This document shows positions 1-19,358 of a stretch of 37,360 bases of DNA, piece after piece. Each line of letters opens with the position of its first letter. Position 1 is the first letter of the stretch. The notes beneath the pieces were generated by a model. It made no database searches, was not told the origin of the DNA, and saw only the letters and a program-made list of their open reading frames with translations. Position numbers and translations under genes: made by a program. Source of the DNA: a virus (taxonomy: Duplodnaviria; Heunggongvirae; Uroviricota; Caudoviricetes); IMG/VR virus record IMGVR_UViG_2541047905_000010, one strand, 5' to 3'.

Positions 1-39
1 AGGTTGCTCCGGGCTATGAAATAGAAAAATGAATCCGTT

Positions 40-134
40 GAAGCCTGCTTTTTTATACTAAGTTGGCATTATAAAAAAGCATTGCTTATCAATTTGTTGC
101 AACGAACAGGTCACTATCAGTCAAAATAAAATCA
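40..134. other. attL: attL (host B arm - 15-bp core - phage P' arm); core GCTTTTTTATACTAA at 47-61
   Basis: Sequence gttgaagcctGCTTTTTTATACTAAgttggcattataaaaaagcattgcttatcaatttgttgcaacgaacaggtcactatcagtcaaaataaaatc matches the lambda att core and P' arm from memory; bases 1-46 are not phage-like; int lies immediately adjacent. Confidence 0.85.
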
Positions 135-1205
135 TTATTTGATTTCAATTTTGTCCCACTCCCTGCCTCTGTCATCACGATACTGTGATGCCATGGTGTC
201 CGACTTATGCCCGAGAAGATGTTGAGCAAACTTATCGCTTATCTGCTTCTCATAGAGTCTTGCAGACAAACTGCGCAACTCGTGAAAGGTAGGCGGATCC
301 CCTTCGAAGGAAAGACCTGATGCTTTTCGTGCGCGCATAAAATACCTTGATACTGTGCCGGATGAAAGCGGTTCGCGACGAGTAGATGCAATTATGGTTT
401 CTCCGCCAAGAATCTCTTTGCATTTATCAAGTGTTTCCTTCATTGATATTCCGAGAGCATCAACATGCAATGCTGTTGGGATGGCAATTTTTACGCCTGT
501 TTTGCTTTGCTCGACATAAAGATATCCATCTACGATATCAGACCACTTCATTTCGCATAAATCACCAACTCGTTGCCCGGTAACAACAGCCAGTTCCATT
601 GCAAGTCTGAGCCAACATGGTGATGATTCTGCTGCTTGATAAATTTTCAGGTATTCGTCAGCCGTAAGTCTTGATCTCCTTACCTCTGATTTTGCTGCGC
701 GAGTGGCAGCGACAGGGTTTGTTGTTATATGGCCTTCAGCTATTGCCTCTCGGAATGCATCGCTCAGTGTTGATCTGATTAACTTGGCTGACGCCGCCTT
801 GCCCTCGTCTATGTATCCATTGAGCATTGCCGCAATTTCTTTTGTGGTGATGTCTTCAAGTGGAGCATCAGGCAGACCCCTCCTTATTGCTTTAATTTTG
901 CTCATGTAATTTATGAGTGTCTTCTGCTTGATTCCTCTGCTGGCCAGGATTTTTTCGTAGCGATCAAGCCATGAATGTAACGTAACGGAATTATCACTGT
1001 TGATTCTCGCTGTCAGAGGCTTGTGTTTGTGTCCTGAAAATAACTCAATGTTGGCCTGTATAGCTTCAGTGATTGCGATTCGCCTGTCTCGGCCTAATCC
1101 AAACTCTTTACCCGTCCTTGGGTCCCTGTAGCAGTAATATCCATTGTTTCTTATATAAAGGTTAGGGGGTAAATCCCGGCGCTCATGACTTCGCCTTCTT
1201 CCCAT
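135..1205 (-). CDS. int: Tyrosine integrase (lambda Int, 356 aa)
   Basis: 356-aa ORF; C-terminal HxxR...Y catalytic region (HELRSLSARLY, LLGHKSDTMASQYRDDRG) typical of lambda Int; sits next to the att core. Confidence 0.97.
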   Translation of the reverse strand: MGRRRSHERRDLPPNLYIRNNGYYCYRDPRTGKEFGLGRDRRIAITEAIQANIELFSGHKHKPLTARINSDNSVTLHSWLDRYEKILASRGIKQKTLINYMSKIKAIRRGLPDAPLEDITTKEIAAMLNGYIDEGKAASAKLIRSTLSDAFREAIAEGHITTNPVAATRAAKSEVRRSRLTADEYLKIYQAAESSPCWLRLAMELAVVTGQRVGDLCEMKWSDIVDGYLYVEQSKTGVKIAIPTALHVDALGISMKETLDKCKEILGGETIIASTRREPLSSGTVSRYFMRARKASGLSFEGDPPTFHELRSLSARLYEKQISDKFAQHLLGHKSDTMASQYRDDRGREWDKIEIK

Positions 1206-1401
1206 TTCTGATCCTCTTCAAAAGGCTACCTGTTACTGGTCGATTTAAGTCAACCTTTACCGCTGATTCGTGGAACAGATATTCTCTTCCATCCTTAACC
1301 GGAGGAGGGAATATCCTGCATTCGCGCACCCATCGACGAATTGTTTCAAGGCTTCTTGGGCGTCGCTGGCGAGCGTTCCACTCCTGAAGTGTCAAGTACA
1401 T
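1183..1401 (-). CDS. xis: Excisionase (lambda Xis, 72 aa)
   Basis: 72-aa ORF MYLTLQEWNARQRRPRSLETIRRWVRE... overlapping the int start; classic int-xis overlap. Confidence 0.95.
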   Translation of the reverse strand: MYLTLQEWNARQRRPRSLETIRRWVRECRIFPPPVKDGREYLFHESAVKVDLNRPVTGSLLKRIRNGKKAKS

Positions 1402-1426
1402 CGCAAAGTCTCCGCAATTACACGCA

Positions 1427-1451
1427 AGAAAAAACCGCCATCAGGCGGCTT
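1427..1451 (-). terminator. Intrinsic terminator for leftward transcription upstream of xis
   Basis: Minus-strand RNA gives hairpin GCCGCC-UGAU-GGCGGC followed by a U-run (plus strand aaaaaaccgccatcaggcggctt). Confidence 0.55.
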
Positions 1452-1956
1452 GGTGTTCTTTCAGTTCTTCAATTCGAATATTGGTTACGTCTGCATGTGC
1501 TATCTGCGCCCACAGCATCCAGTGGTTATAGCAGTCGCTGATGTTCTCGGCTTCGATAACTCTGTTGAATGGTTCTCCATTCCATTCACCTGTAACTCGG
1601 AAGTGCATTTATCATCGCCATAAAACAAAACTCGCCGTAGCGAGTTCAGATAAAAGAAAACCCGCACTCGGCGGGTTCGCATTCGTTCAAATTGCGTTTA
1701 CTTCTTGGCGTTCTGTTCATCCATATCGATATACCATGGGTTGCTTCCCTTGGGCATGTTTAACGACTGCTCGCGATAGTATCTGATGCGCTCCATGAAA
1801 TACTCGCGTGAGTGCTCAGGTTGCTCTCATGATACCTGCTCAGTGATAACAGGTATGTTAAGGCGCTCTCTGTACTCCATGCCTGATGCTGCAAGGTCAA
1901 CGTTTACCTTGTTCTGTTTTTCTTTCGATTTCTCGGCGATGTTATGCCTGACATTG

Positions 1957-2241
1957 TCAACCCGCCTCCTTCTGAACATAACGGTTATAAATCAGTCCCT
2001 GAGGGCCATAAGGAAGCGGGATGTGCAACTCCTCTGGTTCAGAAACTATCCATTCCCCGGCCATCTCCGCTGGAGAGGTAATGATAAGTTGTTTGCTAAT
2101 AAAAGGACCACTCCTCTCAACAACAAGCTTACCATCTTCATTAATAAAAGCTTGGATGTCAGGTGTGCTTCCACACTTGGTGATGCAGCGTTTGAACATT
2201 TTGTGTCCCCCCATTTTATGGACGGGGTAATTATAACACAT
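1957..2241 (-). CDS. Hypothetical early-left protein, Ea8.5-like by position
   Basis: 94-aa minus-strand ORF in the slot between xis and the ea22-like region; cysteine-containing N-terminus. Assignment is positional only. Confidence 0.4.
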   Translation of the reverse strand: MCYNYPVHKMGGHKMFKRCITKCGSTPDIQAFINEDGKLVVERSGPFISKQLIITSPAEMAGEWIVSEPEELHIPLPYGPQGLIYNRYVQKEAG

Positions 2242-2325
2242 TGAAATATAGTAATATTTGACGTAGATTTCTTTTGATCTATAAGCGATTTTTTAATGCT
2301 TTTAAGTTATAAATACTTGTTTTCA

Positions 2326-2901
2326 TCACCCATCTTGCTGCGGTGCTACTATTGAAAAGTACTCACACCCTTTAGCCCAAATAGTTTTGATAGTTGTCCA
2401 ACTGACTGGAACCTTGATTTCGATTCTTCCGCTGCCGTCACAAGTTTCGCAATCATCATCACCAAAGCATTCCGGGCAGCTTATAAACGTAGTTTCTGAA
2501 AATTCACCGGATAGCACACCCTTAGCGCCGTTCTCAGCGGTTAGTTTCTTCGGCACTATAACCCAACCATCCGGAGTTACCGGAGAATTGCCATTTATAT
2601 CGAAGTTTGGCTCTGCGTCCTGAACCAGGAGGATGTAACCATTCTTGGCAGTATCAAGTTCTAACGCCTCGGTGACGGTACCGAAATAGCGATTACCTAA
2701 ATCCGCATCACAAGTGCTTACATCAATGGAAACCTCCATGCCTTCGATTAATTCTGGCAAGTTGTAAGTTTGGCTTACAGGTTCTGCTCCCAGTGATGCC
2801 AGTGCAATTCGTGCCAGTTCCATTTGTTCGCCACGAGTAAGCCCGTTTTCAAGCGGATTTTTAATGAACAATTCAATACGTTCTTTGGTAATAGTGGTCA
2901 T
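2326..2901 (-). CDS. Hypothetical protein with C-terminal CxxC...CxxC zinc-ribbon motif
   Basis: 191-aa ORF; AAGGA ribosome-binding site 8 nt upstream of ATG; motif CPECFGDDDCETCDGSG; tightly packed with the upstream gene. Confidence 0.6.
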   Translation of the reverse strand: MTTITKERIELFIKNPLENGLTRGEQMELARIALASLGAEPVSQTYNLPELIEGMEVSIDVSTCDADLGNRYFGTVTEALELDTAKNGYILLVQDAEPNFDINGNSPVTPDGWVIVPKKLTAENGAKGVLSGEFSETTFISCPECFGDDDCETCDGSGRIEIKVPVSWTTIKTIWAKGCEYFSIVAPQQDG

Positions 2902-2911
2902 TTGTTAGTCC

Positions 2912-3667
2912 TTAAACTGCTAGTTGCAATTGCATTTCAAAGCGGTCGCGTTGTTCACAATACGCAAGAGAACCAGGGCTATTGTGTGCCTCAATCCGTT
3001 CTACCATTAATGCTGCGCGTGTCTCTTTACTTGCAGGTGCATAAGCCCCAGACCAGGCTTTATCAATACCGATGTTTCGAGCGACGTTCGTACTATCTGC
3101 GCTGGCTAAGGGTAATTTTGTGAATATCAGCGGATTTAACATGCGCAATCCATGTAGTTTCGTAACCAGCTGACCATGCCCATCAACAATGTGACGAATC
3201 AGGTCTTTCATTCTGGCTACCGCAAGAGTTGGGCGCTTTACGTCATAGTCGCCACAACTACCGATAGCCACTCGCGGAAACTCATTGCACAAATGAATAA
3301 ATCGCTCGTCACTTTCATTCATGTGCCACACTGGAACGCCAGCTAGTTTTCCGTGAGGCCACTCATTCAGAAGCGCATCATTTTCCTCCTCTCCGCCATC
3401 AATAACATCCGGGATAATGGCAAAATCGAATCTTGGGTGATTCTTCCAGCGAGCAACAAACTCGTAGTAATCGCTCCAGTCGATTTTGTTTTTGCCAGCT
3501 GCTTTCCAGGCGGTGAATGCACCGTTGTCCAGCGCGAACGACTGACAGTATTCAGCCGCGAGATTGATCTGGCCTGAATGCGCAAAACTGATAAACGCAT
3601 GTCGCCCTTTCCATGCTCTCATTGCGCACGTATCAGGAGTAATAGGCCCACCGTGGTAGTGAATCAT
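2912..3667 (-). CDS. Hypothetical protein (251 aa from the second Met; the track ORF extends to 3709)
   Basis: AAGGAGAG ribosome-binding site 6 nt upstream of the ATG at 3667, placed 1 nt after the upstream gene's stop codon; no family recognised by eye. Confidence 0.55.
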   Translation of the reverse strand: MIHYHGGPITPDTCAMRAWKGRHAFISFAHSGQINLAAEYCQSFALDNGAFTAWKAAGKNKIDWSDYYEFVARWKNHPRFDFAIIPDVIDGGEEENDALLNEWPHGKLAGVPVWHMNESDERFIHLCNEFPRVAIGSCGDYDVKRPTLAVARMKDLIRHIVDGHGQLVTKLHGLRMLNPLIFTKLPLASADSTNVARNIGIDKAWSGAYAPASKETRAALMVERIEAHNSPGSLAYCEQRDRFEMQLQLAV

Positions 3668-3668
3668 C

Positions 3669-4076
3669 TCACTCTCCTTTGATGCGAATGCCAGTAGCGC
3701 GGATTGCATCGATGACTTCAGAAACTTTGTATGCCATTACCGTTTGGTAATCATCGTGAAAATCTGTTCGATGAAGCATGCTGCTACGTTCCGGGAGCAG
3801 TATTTCCCGCGCTTCCAGTTCTGCAATGCGCTTTTTTGCTGCTTCCAGTTCATCCAGTAATTCCAGCACGGTAGCCGGATTAGCCTTGGCAACAAAATCC
3901 CGGACTGGCTTACAATCAATCTCCGCAATGGGTTGATACGATGTGTAGCCATGCTGTCTTGTATAACTACCGTGACGAATAACGAAAAAATCACCATTTA
4001 TTTTTTTAGCCTGCCACTTATCTTCACCGGCTTTCTCTGCCGCTTCACGCAGTGCCTGAGAGTTAATTTCGCTCAC
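3669..4076 (-). CDS. Ead/Ea22-like protein
   Basis: 135-aa ORF with a coiled-coil segment (LLDELEAAKKRIAELEAREI) characteristic of Ead/Ea22-like proteins in lambdoid early-left operons. Confidence 0.55.
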   Translation of the reverse strand: MSEINSQALREAAEKAGEDKWQAKKINGDFFVIRHGSYTRQHGYTSYQPIAEIDCKPVRDFVAKANPATVLELLDELEAAKKRIAELEAREILLPERSSMLHRTDFHDDYQTVMAYKVSEVIDAIRATGIRIKGE

Positions 4077-4294
4077 GTCGAACCTCTCTGTTTACTGATA
4101 AGCTCCAGATCTTGCTGGCAACTGGCACAAGTCCGACAACCCTGAACGGCCAGTCGTCTTCGTTCATCTATCGGATCGCCACACTCACAACAATGAGTGG
4201 CAGATATAGCCTGGTGGTTCAGGCGGCGCATTTTTATTGCTGTGTTGCGCTGTAATTCTTCAATTTCTGATGCTGAATCAATTATGTCTGCCAT
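4073..4294 (-). CDS. DksA/TraR-family C4 zinc-finger protein (lambda Orf73-like)
   Basis: 73-aa ORF with CCECGDPIDERRRLAVQGCRTCASCQ, the four-cysteine finger of the TraR/DksA family. Confidence 0.75.
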   Translation of the reverse strand: MADIIDSASEIEELQRNTAIKMRRLNHQAISATHCCECGDPIDERRRLAVQGCRTCASCQQDLELISKQRGST

Positions 4295-4392
4295 CTTTCA
4301 TTAATCCCTGAATTGTTGGTTAATACGCTTGAGGGTGAATGCGAATAATAAAAAAGGAGCCTGTAGCTCCCTGATGATTTTGCTTTTCATGT

Positions 4393-4608
4393 TCACCGTT
4401 CCTTAAAGACGCCGTTCAACATGCCGATCGCCAGGCTTAAATGAGTCGGTGTGAATCCCATCAGCGTTACCGTTTCGCGGTGCTTCTTTAGTACGCTACG
4501 GCAAATGTCATCGACGTTTTTATCCGGAAACTGCTGTCTGGCTTTTTTGATTTCAGAATTAGCCTGACGGGCAATGCTGCGAAGGGCGTTTTCTTGCTGA
4601 GGTGTCAT
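4393..4608 (-). CDS. Hypothetical small protein (71 aa from the internal Met)
   Basis: Minus-strand ORF in the early-left operon; start chosen at MTPQQENALR. Confidence 0.45.
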   Translation of the reverse strand: MTPQQENALRSIARQANSEIKKARQQFPDKNVDDICRSVLKKHRETVTLMGFTPTHLSLAIGMLNGVFKER

Positions 4609-4684
4609 TGAACAAGCCCCATGTCGGCAAGCATAAGCACACAGAATATGAAGCCCGCTGCCAGAAAAATGCATTCAGTGGTTG

Positions 4685-4876
4685 TCATACCTGGTCTCTC
4701 TCATCTGCTTCTGCTTTCGCCACCATCATTTCCAGCTTTTGTGAAAGGGATGCGGCTAACGTATGAAATTCTTCGTCTGTTTCTACTGATATTGGCACAA
4801 ACCTGACTCCAATTTGAGCGAGGCTATGTGCCATCTCGATACTCGTTCTTAACTCAACGGGAGATGCTTTGTGCAT
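4685..4876 (-). CDS. Hypothetical small protein (lambda orf63-like position)
   Basis: 63-aa ORF immediately upstream (in the leftward operon) of the exo-proximal small ORF. Confidence 0.45.
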   Translation of the reverse strand: MHKASPVELRTSIEMAHSLAQIGVRFVPISVETDEEFHTLAASLSQKLEMMVAKAEADERDQV

Positions 4877-5037
4877 ACAGCTCCCCGTTTATTATTTATC
4901 TCCTCAGCCAGCCGCTGTGCTTTCAGGGGATTTCTGATAACAGAAAGGCCGGGAAATACCCAGCCTCGCTTTGTAATGGAGTAGACGAAAGTGATCGCGC
5001 CCACCCGGATATTATCGTGAGGATGCGTCATCGCCAT
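4849..5037 (-). CDS. Hypothetical small protein (lambda orf60a-like position)
   Basis: 62-aa ORF overlapping the exo start region; positional assignment. Confidence 0.35.
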
Positions 5038-5708
5038 TGCTCCCCAAATACAAAACCAATTTCAGCCAGTGCCTCGTCCATTTTTTCGATGAACTCCGGC
5101 ACCATCTCGTCAAAACTCGCCATGTACTTTTCATCCCGCTCAACCACGACATAATGCAGGCCTTCACGCTTCATACGCGGGTCATAGTTGGCAAAGTACC
5201 AGGCATCTTTTCGCGTCACCCACATGCTGTACTGCACCTGGGCCATGTAAGCCGACTTTATGGCCTCGAAACCACCGAGCCGGAACTTCATGAAATCCCG
5301 GGAGGTAAACGGGCATTTCAGCTCAAGGCCATTGCCGTCACTGCATAAACCATCGGGAGAGCAGGCGGTACGCATACTTTCGTCGCGATAGATGATCGGG
5401 GATTCAGTAACATTCACGCCGGAAGTGAATTCAAACAGAGTTCTGGCGTCGTTCTCGTACTGTTTTCCCCATGCCAGCGCCTTAGCATTAACTTCCGGAG
5501 CCACACCGGTGCAAACCTCAGCCAGCAGGGTGTGGAAGTAGGACATTTTCATGTCAGGCCACTTTTTTCCGGAGCGGGGTTTTGCTATCACATTGTGAAC
5601 TTCTGAAGCGGTGATGACGCCGAGCCGTAATTTGTGCCACGCATCATCCCCCTGTTCGACAGCTCTCACGTCGATTCCGGTACGCTGCAGGATAATGTCC
5701 GGTGTCAT
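5028..5708 (-). CDS. exo: Lambda exonuclease (Red-alpha, 226 aa)
   Basis: 226-aa ORF matching lambda Exo from memory ([40 protein letters not shown]...). Confidence 0.97.
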
Positions 5709-6490
5709 GCAGCCACCTTCTGCTCAGTGGCTTTCTGTTTCAGGAATCCAAGAGCTTTCACTGCTTCGGCCTGTGTCAGTTCTGACGATGCGCGAATGTC
5801 GCGGCGAAATATCTGGGAACAGAGCGGCAATAAGTCGTCATCCCATGTTTTATCCAGGGCAATCAGCAGAGTGTTAATCTCCTGCATGGTTTCATCGTTA
5901 ACCGGAGTGATGTCGCGTTCCGGCTGACGTTCTGCAGTGTATGCGGTATTTTCGACAATGCGCTCGGCTTCATCCTTGTCATAGATACCCGCAAATCCGA
6001 AGGCCAGACGGGCACACTGAATCATGGCTTTATGCCGTAACATCCGTTTGGGATGCGACTGCCACGGCCCCGTAATTTCTCTGCCTTCGCGGGTTTTGAA
6101 TGGTTCGCGGCGGCATTCATCCATCCACTCGGTAACGCAGATCGGATGATTACGGTCCTTGCGGTAAATCCGGCATGTACAGGATTCATTGTCCTGCTCA
6201 AAGTCCATGCCATCAAACTGCTGGTTTTCATTGATGATGCGGGACCAGCCATCAACGCCCACCACCGGAACGATGCCATTCTGCTTATCAGGAAAGGTGT
6301 AAATTTCTTTCGTCCACGGATTAAGGCCGTACTGGTTGGCAACGATCAGTAATGCGATGAACTGCGCATCGCTGGCATCACCTTTAAATGCCGTCTGGCG
6401 AAGAGTGGTGATCAGTTCCTGTGGGTCGACAGAATCCATGCCGACACGTTCAGCCAGCTTCCCAGCCAGCGTTGCGAGTGCTGTACTCAT
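5705..6490 (-). CDS. bet: Beta single-strand annealing protein (Red-beta, 261 aa)
   Basis: 261-aa [62 protein letters not shown]...; overlaps the exo start. Confidence 0.97.
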
Positions 6491-6495
6491 CCGTT

Positions 6496-6792
6496 TTATA
6501 CCTCTGAATCAATATCAACCTGGTGGTGAGCAATGGTTTCAACCATGTACCGGATGTGTTCTGCCATGCGCTCCTGAAACTCAACATCGTCATCAAACGC
6601 ACGGGTAATGGCTTTTTTGCTGGCCCCGTGGCGTTGCAAATGATCGATGCATAGCGATTCAAACAGGTGCTGGGGCAGGCCTTTTTCCATGTCGTCTGCC
6701 AGTTCTGCCTCTTTCTCTTCACGGGCGATCTGCTGGTAGTGACGCGCCCAGCTCTGAGCCTCAAGACGATCCTGAATGTAATAAGCGTTCAT
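6496..6792 (-). CDS. gam: Gam, RecBCD inhibitor, short form only (98 aa)
   Basis: [21 protein letters not shown]...[10 protein letters not shown]; the reading frame upstream of this Met has an in-frame stop and no start codon. Confidence 0.9.
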
Positions 6793-6867
6793 GGCTGAAC
6801 TCCTGAAAATGGCTGTGAAAATATCGCCCGCGAAATGCCAGGCTGATTAGGAAAACAGGAAAGGGGA

Positions 6868-7158
6868 TTAGCGATTCAGGCCGTTACCGCGTCCGTCGAG
6901 AAAAACTTCCACGAGCAAATCACGGGTATAAGTGCGCTCGATGCCGCGATGCAGATAAAGCCGTCCGCGTAAATTAGCTGATGCAGTCCAGGTACCATCT
7001 TTGTGTTTGACCAGCATTCCTGGCATGACCGCACCTCGATTAACGGTCTGCGTTCCGTAATGTTGATGAACCATAAAAACTCCTGCCCGTAAGCTGGGCT
7101 GCTGAACATATAGAGACTTCTGCGCGTATTCAGGCGGTGGATGGCCGCCGGTTGTCAT
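6868..7158 (-). CDS. Hypothetical protein in the first-gene position of the leftward early operon (96 aa from ATG; track ORF extends to 7278 from TTG with an Arg-rich N-terminus)
   Basis: Only substantial minus-strand ORF between the candidate pL/OL and gam; not recognisably N, kil or cIII. Confidence 0.35.
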
Positions 7159-7295
7159 AACTAAGTCGCCTCGTTGAAGCGACTGAGGTATGAAGTGTTG
7201 AGTTGATTTCAGCTGGTCACACCGACGTTCACGCGTCCGCTTCACCCCTCGCACTCCCCGAAGCCTGCTGAAATTCAAACTGCGGATCTAAGCGG

Positions 7296-7347
7296 TCATC
7301 GCAACGGTGAAACAGGTGGTTACCGTATCGTTGTGTCGTTGCGATGA
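7296..7347 (-). promoter_or_regulatory. 11-bp perfect inverted repeat (tcatcgcaacg / cgttgcgatga) with 30-bp spacer, in the leader of the leftward early transcript
   Basis: Read directly from the sequence; no U-tract follows, so it is not an intrinsic terminator. Confidence 0.3.
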
Positions 7348-7363
7348 ATTTATTTAAAACTAT

Positions 7364-7430
7364 AGTTGTTTTATCGTCAACAACAAAAGTTGTTTTGTCG
7401 GTTGTTTTAAATATAACTGGTTGTATTTAG
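7364..7430 (-). promoter_or_regulatory. Candidate OL/pL operator-promoter region
   Basis: gttgtt-N8-aacaac at 7365-7384 has the same half-sites as the palindrome between the repressor and cro-like genes; further GTTGT repeats follow at 7389-7425. Confidence 0.35.
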
Positions 7431-7516
7431 GATGGATTTATTTTGTGACTTGCATCGCATAGCGATAACTGAAGTGAGGTGTGGTGGTTTTTTGGACGGT
7501 ATGAGTTATGAGGGGG

Positions 7517-7546
7517 AGGAAAAGAAAACCCGGCGCGGTTGCCGGG
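7517..7546 (-). terminator. Intrinsic terminator downstream of the lipoprotein gene
   Basis: Minus-strand RNA: CCCGGC-AACCGC-GCCGGG followed by UUUUCUUUUC, 9 nt after the stop codon. Confidence 0.65.
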
Positions 7547-7554
7547 TATGATTA

Positions 7555-7935
7555 TCAGTCAGCCCAACCTGATTTCGAGTTTATTTGGGTTTCTGACATT
7601 GTGTATTTCTTAATCGTGTCATCGTTAAAAAGAATAGTAAGTTCTTTTTTCGTACCGTTCGTTCCATTATGGAATAATCCATAGAATGGAATAAAAGTGG
7701 TGCCATTAACTTTTACTTTTGCAAAGGCGTACTTCCAGATCTCGTTTCCACTGTCAGTATATGAAACAGCATCAGGAGAACCAAAGTAAGATTTAACCTC
7801 ATTCTTGGTTGTTTTACCTTCCTGAAGTTTAGACTGGACACTAATTTCAGTTTCATTTTTGAGTTGCTGGTTGCCTGAAGAAGCACACCCAGCCAATACA
7901 GATGCCATCATGGCAGCGATTAGGATTTTTCTCAT
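7555..7935 (-). CDS. Lipoprotein (signal peptide with LAGC lipobox), BamE/OmlA-like fold suspected; lysogenic-conversion moron
   Basis: MRKILIAAMMASVLAGCASS...; AT-rich codon usage; sits directly downstream of the repressor gene on the same strand and has its own terminator. Confidence 0.8.
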   Translation of the reverse strand: MRKILIAAMMASVLAGCASSGNQQLKNETEISVQSKLQEGKTTKNEVKSYFGSPDAVSYTDSGNEIWKYAFAKVKVNGTTFIPFYGLFHNGTNGTKKELTILFNDDTIKKYTMSETQINSKSGWAD

Positions 7936-8164
7936 TTTATGTTTCCATTCATTATAATCAGAAACATCTTAACATAATGATTCGAAATAAAAACCGCTAC
8001 GAGATAGGGGGACATTTTGCTGACAGTAGCAACAAATCTCAGCTAACAACGAGAATATTTACTGAAATATGCAAACAGATTTGGCGTTCTTATAGAGAAT
8101 TTAGTGCAATATCTAATCCGAGTGGTATAAACCTTAACCTTCGCTCCCTTAAGTCGTAGATAAA

Positions 8165-8854
8165 TTAACCATGCTTCCTGTACGTCTGCGGCATGCTTCC
8201 AATGACCTTACCGAATATGAACACCCGGTTCATCTCGTCTTTCTCGATCGGGTCCCACGGCGAGTAGCTCTTGTTATCAGAGATAACCAGCAGCTTATCC
8301 TTCATCATTTGAAGACGTTTTACATGGGCAGTGTCGTCGTACAGAAACGCATAGATGCCATCACCGTCGAAAGATTTAACAGTGATATCAACGAACAGCA
8401 GGTCACCTGGTTCGATCGTCCCTGACATGCTGTCACCTCGCACGTTAATGATGCGGATATTTTCCGCCTTCCTGCCATCGAACATGTGACGAGCATCGTC
8501 AAACGAGTACTCAACCGAGCGTAGAACTTCTACAAACTCACGGTTGATTACACCTGGCCCGGCACTGACTTCTATATCAAGAACGTCAATTTTGAAGTAT
8601 TTGGAATGGCTGACAGTTGATTGTATTGGTTGCACTGTACTGTCTGACATATTTCCAACGCCAGAAGATAACCATTCTGCGCGCACACCCAAAGCGTTCG
8701 CGATCTCCACGATTTTAGTTGTTTGGTTAGCTTTCCCTGTTTCGATTTTCTGAATAGCAGCCTGGCTAACCCCGACCAAATCCCCAAGCGCCTTTTGTGT
8801 AAGGCCTCGCGCTAATCTGGCTTCTTTAAGTCTTTCTGAGAGTGTTGTTTTCAT
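8165..8854 (-). CDS. Prophage repressor, HTH (XRE) + S24 LexA-like peptidase domain (CI-type, not lambda cI)
   Basis: 229 aa; N-terminal LTQKALGDLVGVSQAAIQKIETGK helix-turn-helix; C-terminal Ser/Lys autocleavage module (GDSMSGT...KRL); divergent from the cro-like gene. Confidence 0.9.
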   Translation of the reverse strand: MKTTLSERLKEARLARGLTQKALGDLVGVSQAAIQKIETGKANQTTKIVEIANALGVRAEWLSSGVGNMSDSTVQPIQSTVSHSKYFKIDVLDIEVSAGPGVINREFVEVLRSVEYSFDDARHMFDGRKAENIRIINVRGDSMSGTIEPGDLLFVDITVKSFDGDGIYAFLYDDTAHVKRLQMMKDKLLVISDNKSYSPWDPIEKDEMNRVFIFGKVIGSMPQTYRKHG

Positions 8855-8958
8855 AGATCAAATGTACAACCAAGGTTTTATTTCATCAAACGAAAATGGT
8901 TGTTGACTAAAAACAACCATAGTTTTAATCTTGATTCGGATTAACCACGGAGGTTGTT
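8855..8958. promoter_or_regulatory. OR / pRM-pR divergent promoter-operator region
   Basis: Palindrome atggttgtt-gactaaa-aacaaccat at 8896-8920 overlapping a TTGACT -35-like hexamer; further ACAACC/GGTTGT half-sites at 8866-8876 and 8952-8957. Confidence 0.6.
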
Positions 8959-9189
8959 ATGAACCCAGCAATCAAAACAGCGATCAATATCGTTGGTTCA
9001 CAAAAGAAACTAGGCGATGCCTGCGAAGTTTCACAGCAGGCCGTCTATAAGTGGCTTCACAACAAAGCAAAGGTATCCCCTGAACATGTCGGCAGCATTG
9101 TTACGGCTACTGGTGGAGTTGTGAAGGCATACCAGATTCGCCCGGATCTTCCGAAGTTGTTTCCACACACCGAAAAGAACGCAGCTTAA
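8959..9189 (+). CDS. Cro-like regulator (YdaS/Cro family HTH)
   Basis: 76-aa ORF divergent from the repressor; GGAGG ribosome-binding site; resembles Rac/CP-933P YdaS-type Cro. Confidence 0.8.
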   Translation: MNPAIKTAINIVGSQKKLGDACEVSQQAVYKWLHNKAKVSPEHVGSIVTATGGVVKAYQIRPDLPKLFPHTEKNAA

Positions 9190-9201
9190 ATTTCCATTTC
9201 A

Positions 9202-9213
9202 CGCTCTTTAACA
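9202..9213 (+). promoter_or_regulatory. boxA-like antitermination element (CGCTCTTTAACA)
   Basis: Matches the boxA consensus GCTCTTTAACAA at the position expected for nutR (just downstream of cro); no obvious boxB hairpin follows. Confidence 0.4.
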
Positions 9214-9258
9214 ATAAGCAATCAACTTAACAGTCAATTCAAACTAAAGGAGTCAATT

Positions 9259-9798
9259 ATGCAACCACTTACATACCAACAGACTAGCGGATTTATTCCG
9301 ACTGCGGTGATAAATCGTTCTCAAACAAAACAAGCTCCAGGCCACGAAAAAATCCGTGATGCCGTCCGCGCCTGGTCGGCTGTAGATAATCAGGATGTCG
9401 TTGCCGCACTCATTGTGAATGAGTATCGGGAGCAGGGCGACGGCACCATCGATTTCCCTGATGATGTCAGCCGTGCACGCCAGAAGCTGTTCCGCTTCCT
9501 CGATAACAAATTCGATTCTGAAAAATACCGAAATAACGTGCGTGAACTGACCCCGGCAATTCTGGCGGTACTACCGCTGGAATATCGCGGTTACCTGGTT
9601 GAGCAGGATAGCTTCATGACTCGGTTGGCTGAAATGGAAAAGGAACTCAGTGAGGCAAAACAGGCTGTCATTCTCAACGCACCACGCCACCAGAAACTGA
9701 AGGAAATGAGTGAAGGTATTGTGTCGATGTTTCGTGTGGACCCGGATCTGGCTGGTCCATTAATGGCGATGGTGACCACCATGCTGGGGGCAATATGA
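9259..9798 (+). CDS. YdaT-family protein (proposed CII functional analogue)
   Basis: 179 aa; occupies the cII slot; motif LTPAILAVLPLEYRGYL resembles the YdaT family as recalled. Confidence 0.65.
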   Translation: MQPLTYQQTSGFIPTAVINRSQTKQAPGHEKIRDAVRAWSAVDNQDVVAALIVNEYREQGDGTIDFPDDVSRARQKLFRFLDNKFDSEKYRNNVRELTPAILAVLPLEYRGYLVEQDSFMTRLAEMEKELSEAKQAVILNAPRHQKLKEMSEGIVSMFRVDPDLAGPLMAMVTTMLGAI

Positions 9799-9884
9799 CA
9801 GGTTCAGAAATGGCGAAAGTCGGTCTGCGGGAACAGAACCGACTTTCAGGTGCAAATCGTAACACACTCATTGCGGGAGGAATT

Positions 9885-10814
9885 ATGGCAAACACTGCTG
9901 AGATATTCAATTTTCCAGTGCCGGATGCGGCACAAAAGGAGCCGCGCGTGGCAGATCTCGATGATGGTTATACGCGCATTGCAAATGAGTTGCTGGAAGC
10001 TGTGATGCTGGCCGGATTAACACAGCACCAGCTTCTGGTCTTCCTGGCTGTCATGCGCAAAACATATGGCTTTAATAAAAAACTGGATTGGGTGAGCAAC
10101 GAGCAACTTTCCGAGTTGACCGGGATATTGCCGCACAAGTGTTCTGCTGCAAAAAGCGTTCTGGTAAAGCGTGGGATTCTTATTCAGAGCGGGCGGAATA
10201 TCGGCATTAATAATGTGGTCAGTGAATGGTCAACATTACCCGAATCAGGTAAGAAAAATAAAGTTTACCTGAAAGAGGTAAATTTACCTGAATCAGGTAA
10301 GAAAAGTTTACCCAAATCAGGTAAAGGCGTTTACCCGAATCAGGTAAACACAAAAGACAAACTAACAAAAGACAATATAAAACCTTTTTCGTCCGAGAAT
10401 TCTGGCGAATCCTCTGACCAACCAGAAAACGATCTTCCTGTGGAGAAACCAGATGCTGCAATTCAGAGCGGCAGCAGGTGGGGGACAGCAGAAGACCTGA
10501 CCGCCGCAGAGTGGATGTTTGACATGGTGAAGACCATCGCGCCATCAGCCAGAAAACCGAATTTTGCAGGGTGGGCTAACGATATCCGCCTGATGCGTGA
10601 ACGTGACGGACGTAACCACCGCGACATGTGCGTGCTGTTCCGCTGGGCATGCCAGGACAACTTCTGGTCCGGTAACGTGCTAAGTCCGGCCAAACTCCGC
10701 GACAAGTGGACCCAACTCGAAATCAACCGTAACAAGCAACAGGCTGGCGTGACAGCCGGAAAATCAAAACTCGACCTGACAAACACTGACTGGATTTATG
10801 GGGTGGATTTATGA
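9885..10814 (+). CDS. O: Replication initiator O (lambda O family); track ORF starts at 9795
   Basis: N-terminal region VADLDDGYTRIANELLEA...RKTYGFNK matches lambda O; ori iterons embedded in the coding sequence; GGAGG ribosome-binding site before ATG 9885. Confidence 0.9.
   Translation: MANTAEIFNFPVPDAAQKEPRVADLDDGYTRIANELLEAVMLAGLTQHQLLVFLAVMRKTYGFNKKLDWVSNEQLSELTGILPHKCSAAKSVLVKRGILIQSGRNIGINNVVSEWSTLPESGKKNKVYLKEVNLPESGKKSLPKSGKGVYPNQVNTKDKLTKDNIKPFSSENSGESSDQPENDLPVEKPDAAIQSGSRWGTAEDLTAAEWMFDMVKTIAPSARKPNFAGWANDIRLMRERDGRNHRDMCVLFRWACQDNFWSGNVLSPAKLRDKWTQLEINRNKQQAGVTAGKSKLDLTNTDWIYGVDL
10236..10385. repeat. Origin of replication: four to five ~19-bp iterons (tttacccgaatcaggtaag-type) plus A-rich tract
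   Basis: Direct repeats at about 10236-10253, 10283-10301, 10307-10325, 10329-10347 with a degenerate copy at 10264-10282, then cacaaaagacaaactaacaaaagacaatataaaa. Confidence 0.85.
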
Positions 10815-11512
10815 AAAACATCGCCGCACAGATGGTTAACTTTGACCGTGAGCAGATGCGCCGGATCGCCAACAACATGCCGGAACAGTACGACGAAAAG
10901 CCGCAGGTACAGCAGGTAGCGCGGATCATCAACGGTGTGTTCAGCCAGTTACTGGCAACTTTCCCGGCGAGCCTGGCTAACCGGGACCAGAACGAACTGA
11001 ACGAAATCCGCCGCCAGTGGGTTCTGGCTTTCCGGGAAAACGGGATCACCACAATGGAACAGGTTAACGCAGGAATGCGCGTAGCCCGTCGGCAGAATCG
11101 ACCATTCCTGCCATCACCCGGGCAGTTTGTCGCCTGGTGCCGGGAAGAAGCATCCGTTACCGCCGGACTGCCAAACGCCAGCGAGCTGGTTGATATGGTT
11201 TACGAGTATTGCCGGAAGCGTGGCCTGTATCCGGACGCAGAGTCTTATCCATGGAAATCAAACGCGCACTACTGGTTGGTTACCAACCTGTACCAGAACA
11301 TGCGGGCCAATGCGCTGACTGACGCGGAATTACGGCGTAAAGCTGCCGATGAGCTGACCTGTATGACCGCGCGAATTAACCGTGGTGAGGCGATACCTGA
11401 ACCAGTAAAACAACTTCCTGTCATGGGCGGTAGGCCTCTAAATCGTGCACAGGCTCTGGCGAAGATCGCAGAAATCAAAGCGAAGTTCGGACTGAAAGGA
11501 GCAACTGTATGA
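10811..11512 (+). CDS. P: Replication protein P (DnaB helicase loader, 233 aa)
   Basis: 233-aa ORF matching lambda P from memory (MKNIAAQMVNFDREQMRRIANNMPEQYDEKPQVQQVA...). Confidence 0.96.
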   Translation: MKNIAAQMVNFDREQMRRIANNMPEQYDEKPQVQQVARIINGVFSQLLATFPASLANRDQNELNEIRRQWVLAFRENGITTMEQVNAGMRVARRQNRPFLPSPGQFVAWCREEASVTAGLPNASELVDMVYEYCRKRGLYPDAESYPWKSNAHYWLVTNLYQNMRANALTDAELRRKAADELTCMTARINRGEAIPEPVKQLPVMGGRPLNRAQALAKIAEIKAKFGLKGATV

Positions 11513-11682
11513 CGGGCAAAGAGGCAATTATTCATTATCTGGAGACGCACAAGAGCTTCTGTGCGCCGGACGTTGCTGCGACAACAGGTGTGACATTAAC
11601 CAGCATAAATCAGGCTGCGGCAAAAATGGCGCGGGCAGGAATCCTGGTCATTGATGGTAAGGTCTGGCGAACGTTTGTTTAA
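11509..11682 (+). CDS. ren: Ren-like protein, C-terminally truncated (57 aa)
   Basis: MTGKEAIIHYLETHKSFCAPDVAATTGVTLTSINQAAAKMARAGILVIDGKVWRTFV matches the N-terminal ~55 residues of lambda Ren as recalled; start overlaps the P stop (ATGA). Confidence 0.7.
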   Translation: MTGKEAIIHYLETHKSFCAPDVAATTGVTLTSINQAAAKMARAGILVIDGKVWRTFV

Positions 11683-11828
11683 CGGTTAGCTACTCAGGAT
11701 GATAGGGCGGGGCAAGTGAGTATGAAGCGGATTTTCAGGAATGCCATCAGAGTTTGGAAATAAAGTGGGTTTTCTAGTGGCAAGAGACTTGATAATATTT
11801 AGTTCTTTAAATCCAAGGAGATAGGGTT

Positions 11829-12323
11829 ATGAGAAAATTTATTATAGCCTTTGTCATAAGTGCCTCGTTTACTGCAAATGCTGGTGTAGAGAAGTTAGGG
11901 TCGTGGATAACAAAGTCTGAGATAAATAAAATGACTGACCAGACTGACTTTGTGGCTCTTAATTTATCACCAGATTCATATAACAAAGCAGGTACTGATC
12001 GTGCAACTTCACTGGTGTTGCGTTGTAGTGATAACAAAACAGATGCCTATTTATCATTCAATGATTATATGGGTTCGGACAACCCAAGAATTACAGTGCG
12101 GTTAGATGGCGGAAAGCCGGTCAAGAGTGCTTGGGGAGGTGGGGAAGGCGGTGATTCTGCATTTGCTCCACAACCAATACAATTTATAAAGACCTTGGCT
12201 AAGCATAAAAAAGCTATTTTTGGGTTTGAACCTTATGGATCAACTATGCAAGTAGTTGAGTTTGACTTGTCTGAGATTGATAAGGTTGTGGAAAAAATTT
12301 CACAGTCTTGCAATTGGAAATGA
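11829..12323 (+). CDS. Secreted/periplasmic hypothetical protein (Sec signal peptide, two Cys); AT-rich moron
   Basis: 164 aa; MRKFIIAFVISASFTANA signal peptide; AAGGAGA ribosome-binding site; followed by an intrinsic terminator; lower GC than the flanks. Confidence 0.7.
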   Translation: MRKFIIAFVISASFTANAGVEKLGSWITKSEINKMTDQTDFVALNLSPDSYNKAGTDRATSLVLRCSDNKTDAYLSFNDYMGSDNPRITVRLDGGKPVKSAWGGGEGGDSAFAPQPIQFIKTLAKHKKAIFGFEPYGSTMQVVEFDLSEIDKVVEKISQSCNWK

Positions 12324-12340
12324 CAAAAAAATTTCATATG

Positions 12341-12368
12341 AACCCAGTTGGCGCTGGGTTTTTTATTT
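12341..12368 (+). terminator. Intrinsic terminator after the secreted-protein gene
   Basis: aacccag-ttggcg-ctgggtt hairpin followed by ttttatttc. Confidence 0.65.
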
Positions 12369-13096
12369 CAGTAGCCAATAATGCATTCAAAATCTCTTAC
12401 TTGAGAAACGGCCTATTTGAGATTTCAGTCGTGGCAGGATGATCAGTTGATTCGAGTATTGACGCATTTGCGTTCGGAGCGATTACAGTAGATTGTAAAT
12501 AATAATGAGAAACACATAGCCACATAGCCACCCCGTGGTATTGAAACCATATAATGTTGGATTTGAAAACAGATCTTTTCCCATGTATTAATAACTACAT
12601 CCCCGCGAGTGATTCAAAAAGGAGGGCCCAATTTTGTCCGAGTTTTTGTATTCCCCCGCATGCCGCTGCGGAGCACTACATCTGAGTGTCTGACTAGGGG
12701 ATAAAATTAGACTGGATAGTGAGAAGAAAGTGGCGCGCTAGGCTGTGCCGAGTGCTACCAGTACACCTTGGGGGTGTGCAGCTTTCGCCGAGACTGTAGT
12801 GGGTATCGGTTAATGCACGAAAAACCGAGAGGTCAGACAACCAATTTGCCGTAGGATTGTTTCCGGTGCGATACCGGTCTACTAACTGAAAGCAATGCGA
12901 AAAAGCATAAACTCGGTCCTTCAGTCGCCCTACACACTATTTACTAAGAAGGGCTGAAGCATGGATACAATTATTACATGGATGGGAGATCGTCTGTTGG
13001 GGGGGACACAAAAATCCGATCTGCAGCAGATGGCGATCACTGGATTAACTTCCGCGATTTGTTCAACAATTTTGTACACTGAAAAATTAAAACATG

Positions 13097-13105
13097 GTGA
13101 GCCTA
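13097..13105. repeat. IS1 target-site duplication, left copy (gtgagccta)
   Basis: Identical 9-mer directly flanks both IS1 ends. Confidence 0.9.
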
Positions 13106-13120
13106 GGTAATGACTCCAAC

Positions 13121-13624
13121 TTATTGATAGTGTTTTATGTTCAGATAATGCCCGATGACTTTGTCATGCAGCTCCACCGATTTTGAGAACGACAGCGACT
13201 TCCGTCCCAGCCGTGCCAGGTGCTGCCTCAGATTCAGGTTATGCCGCTCAATTCGCTGCGTATATCGCTTGCTGATTACGTGCAGCTTTCCCTTCAGGCG
13301 GGATTCATACAGCGGCCAGCCATCCGTCATCCATATCACCACGTCAAAGGGTGACAGCAGGCTCATAAGACGCCCCAGCGTCGCCATAGTGCGTTCACCG
13401 AATACGTGCGCAACAACCGTCTTCCGGAGCCTGTCATACGCGTAAAACAGCCAGCGCTGGCGCGATTTAGCCCCGACATAGCCCCACTGTTCGTCCATTT
13501 CCGCGCAGACGATGACGTCACTGCCCGGCTGTATGCGCGAGGTTACCGACTGCGGCCTGAGTTTTTTAAGTGACGTAAAATCGTGTTGAGGCCAACGCCC
13601 ATAATGCGGGCTGTTGCCCGGCAT
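13121..13624 (-). CDS. insB: IS1 transposase InsB (expressed as InsAB' by -1 frameshift)
   Basis: 167-aa ORF matching IS1 InsB from memory ([58 protein letters not shown]...). Confidence 0.93.
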
Positions 13625-13818
13625 CCAACGCCATTCATGGCCATATCAATGATTTTCTGGTGCGTACCGGGTTGAGAAGCGGTGTAAGTGAACTGCAGTT
13701 GCCATGTTTTACGGCAGTGAGAGCAGAGATAGCGCTGATGTCCGGCGGTGCTTTTGCCGTTACGCACCACCCCGTCAGTAGCTGAACAGGAGGGACAGCT
13801 GATAGAAACAGAAGCCAC
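13543..13818 (-). CDS. insA: IS1 InsA (transposition inhibitor / N-terminal part of InsAB')
   Basis: 91-aa [45 protein letters not shown]... Confidence 0.93.
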
Positions 13819-13873
13819 TGGAGCACCTCAAAAACACCATCATACACTAAATCAGTAAGTTGGCAGCATCACC

Positions 13874-13882
13874 GTGAGCCTA
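13874..13882. repeat. IS1 target-site duplication, right copy (gtgagccta)
   Basis: Identical to 13097-13105. Confidence 0.9.
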
Positions 13883-14144
13883 TTAACCCAAACGAAGAAG
13901 AAAAACTTTATAGGCTTTGGTATGAAGGAAACGCTTGAAAGAATAAAGCACAATTAAAACCTTTGATTTGCGATAATCAACTTGCCATAATTAAGTAATC
14001 GGAGCCTGAACAACTCCGGTGACTTCTGCGCTAAACGGGGACGTTTATGCGCACATACAATCCAAACTATCTTCTCCTTTCACAGATGCAGAAATGCACC
14101 TGCAATTCTTTGCATCTAGCGTTTGACCTCTGTGGAGGTGAAGC

Positions 14145-15549: not shown

Positions 15550-15634
15550 AGTCAGAGATAACAATCAACTAATACTGTTTTGTTGATTTTTGCTTGTAAT
15601 TGGCGTTCTGGTCTGATTTTTGTGGAGTAAGTTG

Positions 15635-16018
15635 ATGCGTGATATTCAGATGGTTCTTGAGCGTTGGGGAGCGTGGGCGGCTAATAATCATGAAGATGTG
15701 ACCTGGTCGTCCATTGCCGCCGGTTTTAAGGGATTAATTACTTCAAAAGTAAAATCTCGCCCGCAATGTTGTGACGATGACGCTATGATCATTTGCGGGT
15801 GCATGGCCCGTCTGAAAAAGAACAACAGCGATTTGCACGATTTATTAGTAGATTATTATGTAGTCGGTATGACATTCATGTCACTGGCAGGTAAGCATTG
15901 CTGCTCTGATGGTTATATCGGGAAAAGGTTACAGAAGGCTGAGGGCATAATTGAAGGGATGTTAATGGCATTAGATATCCAGTTAGAGATGGATATCGTT
16001 GTTAATAACTCTAATTAA
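15635..16018 (+). CDS. Q: Late-gene antiterminator Q (DLP12 QuuD-like, 127 aa from ATG)
   Basis: Position between rusA and the lysis genes; cysteine-rich ([16 protein letters not shown]); track ORF begins at an upstream TTG. Confidence 0.8.
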
Positions 16019-16207: not shown

Positions 16208-17290
16208 TTAGAACTGGTAAACCAGACCTACAGCGACGATGTCGTCGGTATCAATATCAGCTGTTTTGGTAAACTTACTATCGTCAATTAAGTTGATTTT
16301 GTAATCAACAAAAGTGGACATGTTTTTATTAAAGTAGTAAGTAGCACCGACATCGACATACTTGACTAAGTCTCGGTCACCATGAACACCAAGGTCTTTA
16401 CCTTTTGACTGAAGGTAAGCAACAGATGGGCGCAGACCGAAGTCAAACTGATATTGTGCTACTGCTTCAAAGTTTTGTGCTTTGTTTGCAATATGGTTAT
16501 TACCAAAAACGGTCATATTCTGAGTTTCAGAATATGTGGTAGCCAGATAGATATTGTTCGCATCATATTTCAGGCCTGCAGCCCATACTTCCGCATTTTT
16601 GCCGGAGGCATTGAATTTGCTCTTACCATAGGCGACCTGACCGTCAGTGCGATCTGATTTAGCATAGGTTGCACCCACGCCGAATCCTTCATACTCATAA
16701 GTAGTGGAGAAACCGAAACCATCACCATTGGCTTCAGTTACGTCAGTGCGGTCATTTTTACCCTGATACTGAGCAGCAAAGTTCAGGCCATCGACCAGAC
16801 CAAAGAAGTCGTTGTTACGATAAGTTGCAACACCAGTAGTGCGACCAGTCATGAACACATCTGTTTGGGTCCAGGTATCACCACCGAATTCTGGCAGAAC
16901 GTCAGTCCACGCACCGATGTCGTATGCTACACCGTAGTTACGGCCGTAATCGATTGAGCCGTAATCACCAAATTTCAGGCCTGCAAATGCAAGACGGGTT
17001 TTGTCTTTGGAAGAACCTTGAGATTCAGCGCGGTTGCCTTTGAATTCATATTCCCACTGACCGAAACCAGTCAGTTGATCGTTGATTTGGGTTTCACCTT
17101 TGAAGCCAAGACGGGCATAAGTAGTATCACCATCATCTGCATCATTAGAGGAGAAGTAGTGCTTAGCATTAACTTTCCCGTACAGATCCAGCTTGTTACT
17201 GTCTTTATTATAAATTTCAGCTGCCTGAGCAGACATCGCCATCAGTACTGATGCAGCTACAGCAGAAATTGCCACTGTTAATTTTTTCAT
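16208..17290 (-). CDS. nmpC: Outer-membrane general porin, NmpC/Lc (OmpC/OmpF/PhoE family), intact; lysogenic-conversion moron
   Basis: 360 aa from [23 protein letters not shown] (signal peptide) to C-terminal ...VAVGLVYQF; track ORF adds 20 spurious N-terminal codons. Confidence 0.95.
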
Positions 17291-19064: not shown

Positions 19065-19358
19065 TTATTGTGAGCAATACACACGCGCTTCCAGCGGAGT
19101 ATAAATGCCTAAAGTAATAAAACCGAGAAATCCATTTACGAATGTTTGCTGGGTTTCTGTTTTAACAACATTTTCTGCGCCGCCACAAATTTTGGCTGCA
19201 TCAACAGTTTTCTCCTGTCCAATTCCCGAAACGAAGAAATGATGGGTGATGGTTTCCTTTGGTGTTACTGCTGTCGGTTTGTTTCCAACAGTAAACGTCT
19301 GTTGAGCACATCCTGTAATAAGCATTGCCAGAGCGGCAGAAAACAACATTTTTTTCAT
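19065..19358 (-). CDS. bor: Bor lipoprotein (serum-resistance factor), 97 aa
   Basis: MKKMLFSAALAMLITGCAQQTFTV...EARVYCSQ matches lambda Bor from memory; track ORF has a 16-codon spurious extension. Confidence 0.92.
   Translation of the reverse strand: MKKMLFSAALAMLITGCAQQTFTVGNKPTAVTPKETITHHFFVSGIGQEKTVDAAKICGGAENVVKTETQQTFVNGFLGFITLGIYTPLEARVYCSQ

Follow-up and report, generated by a model that had tools for sequence, protein, structure and literature searches.

The insertion sequence IS1 is 768 bp long, carries an A6C motif at which a frameshift takes place, duplicates 8 or 9 bp of its target, and has a weak promoter that overlaps IRL in part (PMC12428005). The described elements closest to the one reported here are IS1A and IS1E of Escherichia coli K-12, the IS1 'consensus' of that paper, which share with it the same 768 bp, the inverted repeats, insA, the insB frame, the A6C motif and the 232-aa InsAB'. 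K-12 IS1A lies in the nhaR-rpsT interval, whereas the present copy lies in the nin region of a prophage and differs from it by one base. As a setting for such an insertion, the closest described case is the cryptic K-12 prophage DLP12, which carries IS5B in nmpC and IS3C in renD; there, likewise, insertion sequences are found in non-essential genes of a lambdoid prophage with the ybcN...rzpD module. In our prophage, however, the element is IS1, the target is a small ORF upstream of ylcH/ybcN, and the porin gene is intact. A third case is strain 2EC1 (NZ_CP047571.1), where ISEc52 was independently inserted into the same short-allele ORF of a related prophage. That element belongs to the IS3 family, sits about 100 nt further upstream at a run of G within the ORF, and has its own transposase frameshifted.

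We analyzed a stretch of 37,360 nt of this prophage (IMG/VR record IMGVR_UViG_2541047905_000010), referred to below as the window. Our main reading, to which we give a probability of about 0.95, is that a canonical, intact IS1 moved by simple and recent insertion into an already degraded ORF in the nin region of a lambda-like E. coli prophage. The features of the insertion locus are the following.

12961-13110, plus strand: 5' section of the ORF split by IS1; its 48 original codons are followed by Arg and a stop from the IS1 end, giving a 49-aa product
12999-13005, plus strand: run of seven G inside the ORF, of length 6, 7 or 8 among genomes (allele alignment)
13097-13105, no strand: left copy of the 9-bp target-site duplication, GTGAGCCTA, identical to the right copy
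13106-13873, minus strand (genes on the minus strand): complete IS1, 768 bp, length and ends checked by script
13106-13128, no strand: terminal inverted repeat at the insB end (IRR type), GGTAATGACTCCAACTTATTGAT
13121-13624, minus strand: insB reading frame, 167 aa, DDE catalytic part of the InsAB' transposase (Pfam match)
13543-13818, minus strand: insA, 91 aa, zinc ribbon and helix-turn-helix (Pfam matches)
13561-13567, minus strand: A6C slippery motif (AAAAAAC) for the -1 programmed frameshift, in the insA/insB overlap at IS coordinate 307
13851-13873, no strand: terminal inverted repeat at the insA end (IRL type), reverse complement of GGTGATGCTGCCAACTTACTGAT
13874-13882, no strand: right copy of the 9-bp target-site duplication, GTGAGCCTA, identical to the left copy
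13883-13938, plus strand: 3' piece of the split ORF, with the final 18 codons and stop of the 66-codon allele
13917-13927, plus strand: TTGGTATGAAG, the one surviving copy of an 11-bp direct repeat at a 134-nt deletion scar (alignment of short and long alleles)

The initial annotation had described a complete IS1 with both terminal inverted repeats and intact insA and insB, flanked by identical 9-mers and splitting a small ORF, and on these points our checks agreed with it throughout. The length of about 768 bp and the imperfect inverted repeats with a GGTRATG start place the element in IS1; the two ends are identical at 18 of 23 positions. Through a Pfam scan of the window, InsA was matched to PF03811 (Zn_ribbon_InsA, 1.3e-21) and PF12759 (HTH_Tnp_IS1, 4.7e-31), and the insB frame to PF03400 (DDE_Tnp_IS1, 2.3e-78) with the full profile (1-131) covered. 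In the computed translation, a -1 shift at the A6C motif gives an open 232-aa InsAB' fusion. Compared with K-12 IS1A, 767 of the 768 bases are identical and the sole mismatch is at window position 13430, while many other E. coli copies, labelled 'IS1A family' in RefSeq, are 100% identical. A promoter-like match (CTGCCA, 16-nt spacer, TATGAT; 13866-13839, minus strand) overlaps the IRL-type end, which is the place where PMC12428005 puts the weak IS1 promoter. The whole window contains this one copy of IS1. Because its parts are intact and it is identical to widespread copies, the element is apparently a canonical and transposition-competent IS1.

On re-inspection, the 9-mer GTGAGCCTA was present on both sides of the element, at 13097-13105 and 13874-13882, and a search of both strands revealed no further copy elsewhere in the window. 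The identity of one given pair of 9-mers by chance would have a probability of about 4^-9 (4e-6). The duplication of 9 bp agrees with the 8- or 9-bp duplications made by IS1, and GTGAGCCTA is single-copy in the empty site of sister genomes. The claim that removing the element and one duplication copy restores a continuous 66-codon frame also proved correct: 12961-13105 joined to 13883-13938 forms 201 nt in frame, encoding 66 aa and a stop (MDTIITWMGDRLLGGTQKSDLQQMAITGLTSAICSTILYTEKLKHGEPINPNEEEKLYRLWYEGNA). During the insertion, the ends of the element would have been joined to a staggered cut in the target, and repair of the 9-nt stagger would have produced the direct repeat of GTGAGCCTA. IS1 landed after codon 48 of the 66-codon ORF, whose predicted product is now 49 aa (...GEPR, stop).

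For comparison with related prophages lacking IS1 at this position, the empty site was reconstructed from 400 bp on each side with one 9-mer kept (800 bp). Twelve complete E. coli genomes, including GB089, VR50, 582, DLI.6n, MS 196-1, N10 and SY033, contain this intact site with 100% identity over the 800 bp. Because the reconstructed site is matched completely in these genomes, the event is a simple insertion and not an IS-mediated deletion, an inversion or a composite transposon. None of our observations speaks against this reading. The identity extends far beyond the site: the left arm (1-13105; 13,105 bp) is 99.9-100% identical to IS1-free sister prophages in seven genomes, and the right arm (13883-37360; 23,478 bp) is 100.0% identical to VR50 and 99.9% identical to DLI.6n and SY033. 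In SY033 both arms abut directly, at record positions 3422213 and 3422212.

Megablast revealed the occupied site in none of 5,426 complete E. coli genomes. FG92-1, the sole record with at least 80% coverage, has another arrangement, in which IS1 is located about 400 nt upstream of the long allele described below. The exact left junction was not found in the GTDB species-representative genomes, nor in JGI metagenome contigs. The occupied site was reached through a search with the exact 49-aa junction product (…KHGEPR, stop), and is present in the NCBI draft assembly GCA_000460555.1, where scaffold KE701829.1 is identical over 6,150 nt including IS1 and both junctions. A Logan contig of run SRR786082 has the same left junction and breaks off after 23 nt of IS1, its 3,173-nt locus being identical to the window. 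The 49-aa junction product has the accessions EQX57652.1 / WP_021561733.1. A protein collection clustered at 90% identity places this product together with MtaB radical-SAM proteins of 197-472 aa, to which it is unrelated; this looks like a database clustering artefact and not biology.

The insertion had been called relatively recent on account of the perfect duplication, and our comparisons point the same way. Since the flanks equal the empty sites exactly, the IS1 copy equals many others, and none of the 5,426 complete genomes has the occupied site, the insertion is recent. It is also restricted to one lineage, because a single draft assembly and a single Logan contig were the only places where the occupied site was met with.

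The gene order of the prophage was derived from PGAP annotation of sister prophages and Pfam matches in the window, as follows.

Left part of the prophage: integrase, excisionase, exo, bet, gam and kil (PGAP of the identical sister prophage, Pfam of the window)
1698-1979, minus strand: DNA polymerase III theta-like gene, a pseudogene with an internal stop (PGAP, identical sister prophage)
7555-7935, minus strand: SEN1984-family lipoprotein gene, between kil and the S24-type repressor
After the lipoprotein gene: S24-type repressor, cro-like regulator, YdaT-domain protein, O and P (P at 10811-11512)
11509-11777, plus strand: ren, a pseudogene with a frameshift and an internal stop (PGAP, identical sister prophage)
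11829-12323: TagO/VasI-like protein, 164 aa, between ren and the nin region (weak PF11319 match, 2.9e-6; phrog_1848)
After the TagO/VasI-like gene: about 640 nt without annotated gene, then the small ORF and IS1
After the small ORF: ylcH-like ORF, ybcN, ninE, ybcO, rusA, ylcG and quuD (Q, 15620-16018) (PGAP and Pfam)
16208-17290, minus strand: OmpC/NmpC-like porin, intact, 360 aa, one residue different from the SY033 copy
After the porin: essD, rrrD and rzpD, then an iss/bor serum-survival lipoprotein homologue (19065-19358, minus strand)
After the iss/bor homologue: terminase and lambda-like head and tail genes, the prophage being near full length

The NinB-like, RusA, Q and porin domains were confirmed by Pfam in the window. 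No convincing ORF for a lambda N homologue was found between kil and the repressor (7075-8165), and none is annotated in the sister prophage. The theta-like and ren pseudogenes are signs of some decay in the prophage beyond the IS1 insertion. The porin and the iss/bor homologue are cargo genes of the prophage.

The resemblance to DLP12 is real in one module. By the PGAP names in the sisters compared with K-12, the series ybcN-ninE-ybcO-rusA-ylcG-quuD-porin-essD-rrrD-rzpD is shared. The contrast drawn earlier between the porin genes also holds, the window porin being intact with 360 aa and the K-12 nmpC being split by IS5B. Integration at argU with intD, as in DLP12, was not observed, since a sister with 100% left-arm identity lies beside ybhC: in SY033 the prophage directly adjoins ybhC, downstream of gal and mod. 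This position beside ybhC, on the gal side, we take to be the lambda attachment site. The window ends 134 nt past the integrase gene, and no tRNA or tRNA attachment site was found in it. Unlike DLP12, the window prophage has nearly its full length and includes head and tail genes of the lambda type. The small ORF has no similarity in K-12 DLP12, which has ybcL and ybcM at that place. Because the sister copies adjoin ybhC and DLP12 lies at argU, the prophage is not DLP12, and the resemblance is limited to the nin-Q-porin-lysis module. The position beside ybhC, which sets the prophage apart from DLP12, and the nature of the target ORF as a truncated phrog_12412 allele, are thus additions to the initial annotation.

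That IS1 splits a small ORF is supported by the unoccupied sister genomes, in which the reconstituted ORF is annotated by PGAP as the hypothetical protein WP_000379696.1. In PHROGs it matched phrog_8527 (66 aa) over the full length (2.2e-49), and its first 64 residues matched phrog_12412 (118 aa; 1.7e-25). Both PHROGs matches are to families without assigned function, and Pfam gave no match to either the 66-aa or the 118-aa form.

The DNA of the ORF is present in 158 of the 5,426 complete E. coli genomes and falls into two allele groups. The short-allele group has 59 copies at least 95% identical to the window ORF (57 of them at 99% or more); the long-allele group has 99 copies at 90-95% identity (91.2-92.2% among the matches listed), with a gene annotated as 357 nt, or 118 aa (WP_000379698.1, WP_000379700.1). 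Through the comparison of the two alleles, we found that the short one lacks 134 nt between two copies of TTGGTATGAAG, so that the frame is shifted and an early stop is reached. Homologues of the 118-aa form in Obesumbacterium, Enterobacter and other Enterobacterales have exactly 118 residues at 51-79% identity. The best-conserved stretch of the family is the C-terminal half (WYEASS…LAKRCLDKSEYWLNS…LNISLVGMKATLE), which is absent from the short allele; the window lineage keeps residues 1-64 only and does not match phrog_12412 over its full length. Considering that its length is kept at 51-79% identity and that it occurs in two Escherichia phage records (IdasGreatGrand and Turner, by tblastn), the 118-aa form looks like a real gene. 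The AlphaFold model of this form has four helices with a mean pLDDT of 80. A Foldseek search of the model against PDB revealed no significant neighbour, with a best E-value of 0.39 to designed helical bundles; a likeness to HEPN toxins was considered and rejected, the Foldseek rows being weak and not significant.

From these alignments, the 66-codon ORF appears to be the remnant of a conserved 118-codon phage gene (phrog_12412), left by a direct-repeat deletion and the resulting frameshift. As to the conservation of the 66-codon ORF, a point raised in the initial annotation, homologues do exist, but the conserved form has 118 codons and its best-conserved half is missing here. Compared with phrog_12412 (118 aa) and phrog_8527 (66 aa), the window lineage has the truncated form only, and this has been cut to 49 aa by IS1. 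Because the ORF was already degraded and its best-conserved C-terminal half was gone, the coding loss caused by IS1 was probably of no consequence.

An effect on transcription is another matter. IS1 is located in the rightward early unit running from the replication genes through ybcN...rusA... to Q, and could reduce read-through towards Q. A stronger form of this proposal is that polarity of IS1 interrupts, with substantial effect, the delayed-early transcription that runs on from the replication genes through ybcN-ninE-ybcO-rusA-ylcG-Q, which we regard as rather unlikely. If true, Q and late-gene expression would be lowered and the prophage would be locked into the chromosome, an early step of domestication. 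As polarity would have it, P (10811-11512) precedes the element and Q (15620-16018) follows it on the strand transcribed early and rightward. IS1 insertions are polar in both orientations, as in the classical gal and lac insertion mutants, and this counts for the proposal. The IS2, IS3-family and ISCro1 elements carried elsewhere by sister prophages also fit progressive decay. Against it, a strong intrinsic-terminator-like hairpin (12340-12361; nine pairs, then TTTTTATTT with its T run) precedes IS1, directly after the TagO/VasI-like gene. Early transcription arriving at IS1 must already be termination-resistant to have passed this hairpin, and would probably pass IS1 too. In addition, the interior of IS1 shows only a weak terminator-like match on the plus strand, and immediately downstream of the element (13963-13991) there is a sigma-70-like match whose -10 is of the extended type. 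Considering the hairpin upstream and this promoter-like site downstream, the downstream genes may not depend on transcription across the insertion site. The position of the hairpin is reminiscent of lambda tR2-type terminators ahead of the nin region.

It is also conceivable, though unlikely in our judgment, that the 66-codon ORF was a working small protein, e.g. an N-terminal helical or membrane-associated peptide, whose function was abolished by IS1. The ORF is annotated by PGAP in unoccupied genomes and has its own PHROG family (phrog_8527), and its residues 1-64 correspond to helices one and two as predicted for the 118-aa protein. The pN/pS between short and long alleles is 0.45, below 1, computed on 63 shared codons with only about 15 changes, too few to be decisive; a functional N-terminal peptide might still be produced from the short allele. 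However, the most conserved half of the family is missing from it, and the short allele was seen only in E. coli or in unattributed assembly and read data (67-100% identity). With the 118-aa query, whose first 64 residues are common to the short form, tblastn found only the two Escherichia phages, both full-length. The frame itself is often damaged: the G-run has a length of 6 or 8 in some genomes, where the frame is broken and PGAP annotates no gene. In an evenly spaced sample of matches, a frame-breaking length was found in 5 of 15 short-allele rows, so about one third of the sampled copies are broken and unannotated. Some of these length differences could be homopolymer sequencing errors in the assemblies.

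Considering that a direct-repeat deletion, homopolymer frameshifts, ISEc52 and IS1 have all hit this ORF, we might speculate that the 118-aa four-helix family (phrog_12412) is a real and conserved accessory gene within the lambdoid nin region, and one inactivated repeatedly in E. coli lysogens. We think this improbable. If it were so, such a pattern would suit a gene that carries a cost or is selected against in the prophage state, e.g. a toxic or host-interfering one, and the present IS1 would be one more instance. Lastly, that IS1 was put at this place by misassembly of a misplaced repeat copy is extremely improbable: IS1 is a multicopy repeat, at a median of 11 places in an E. coli genome, and interrupts short-read assemblies, the Logan contig of SRR786082 stopping 23 nt inside it, but a perfect 9-bp target duplication of the kind made by IS1 is present on both sides, this independent read-set assembly has the same left junction, and the NCBI scaffold of GCA_000460555.1 spans both junctions.

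The preferred reading, a simple and recent insertion of a canonical IS1 into a degraded ORF, describes an ordinary event of a known kind, which textbook IS1 biology explains in full. The insertion cleanly marks one E. coli lineage, has little weight beyond strain-level bookkeeping, and is one more case of insertion sequences accumulating in prophage accessory regions. There is a gain for annotation, in that WP_000379696.1 (phrog_8527) could be labelled as a truncated allele of the 118-aa family phrog_12412.

Near-identical sister prophages carry other insertion sequences: an IS3-family element in SY033, IS2 in 582, ISCro1 in DLI.6n, and the ISEc52 in the ORF of 2EC1 (sister loci L009, 36994-38207, and L011, 1323-2492). 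The occurrence of different elements at different places in the sisters suggests that this prophage lineage gathers insertion sequences independently in different hosts.

In the whole window no Rfam match reached the gathering threshold. Upstream of the small ORF, one chance-level match only (E = 0.98) appeared in 12300-13105, and the folding of 12690-12960 was no better than that of shuffles on either strand (z -0.5 and -0.7). The stretch 12403-12960, about 560 nt without annotated gene, accompanies the ORF, with 93-98% identity, in prophages that have another upstream neighbour; in EC931 a similar stretch follows a P22AR antirepressor-like gene.
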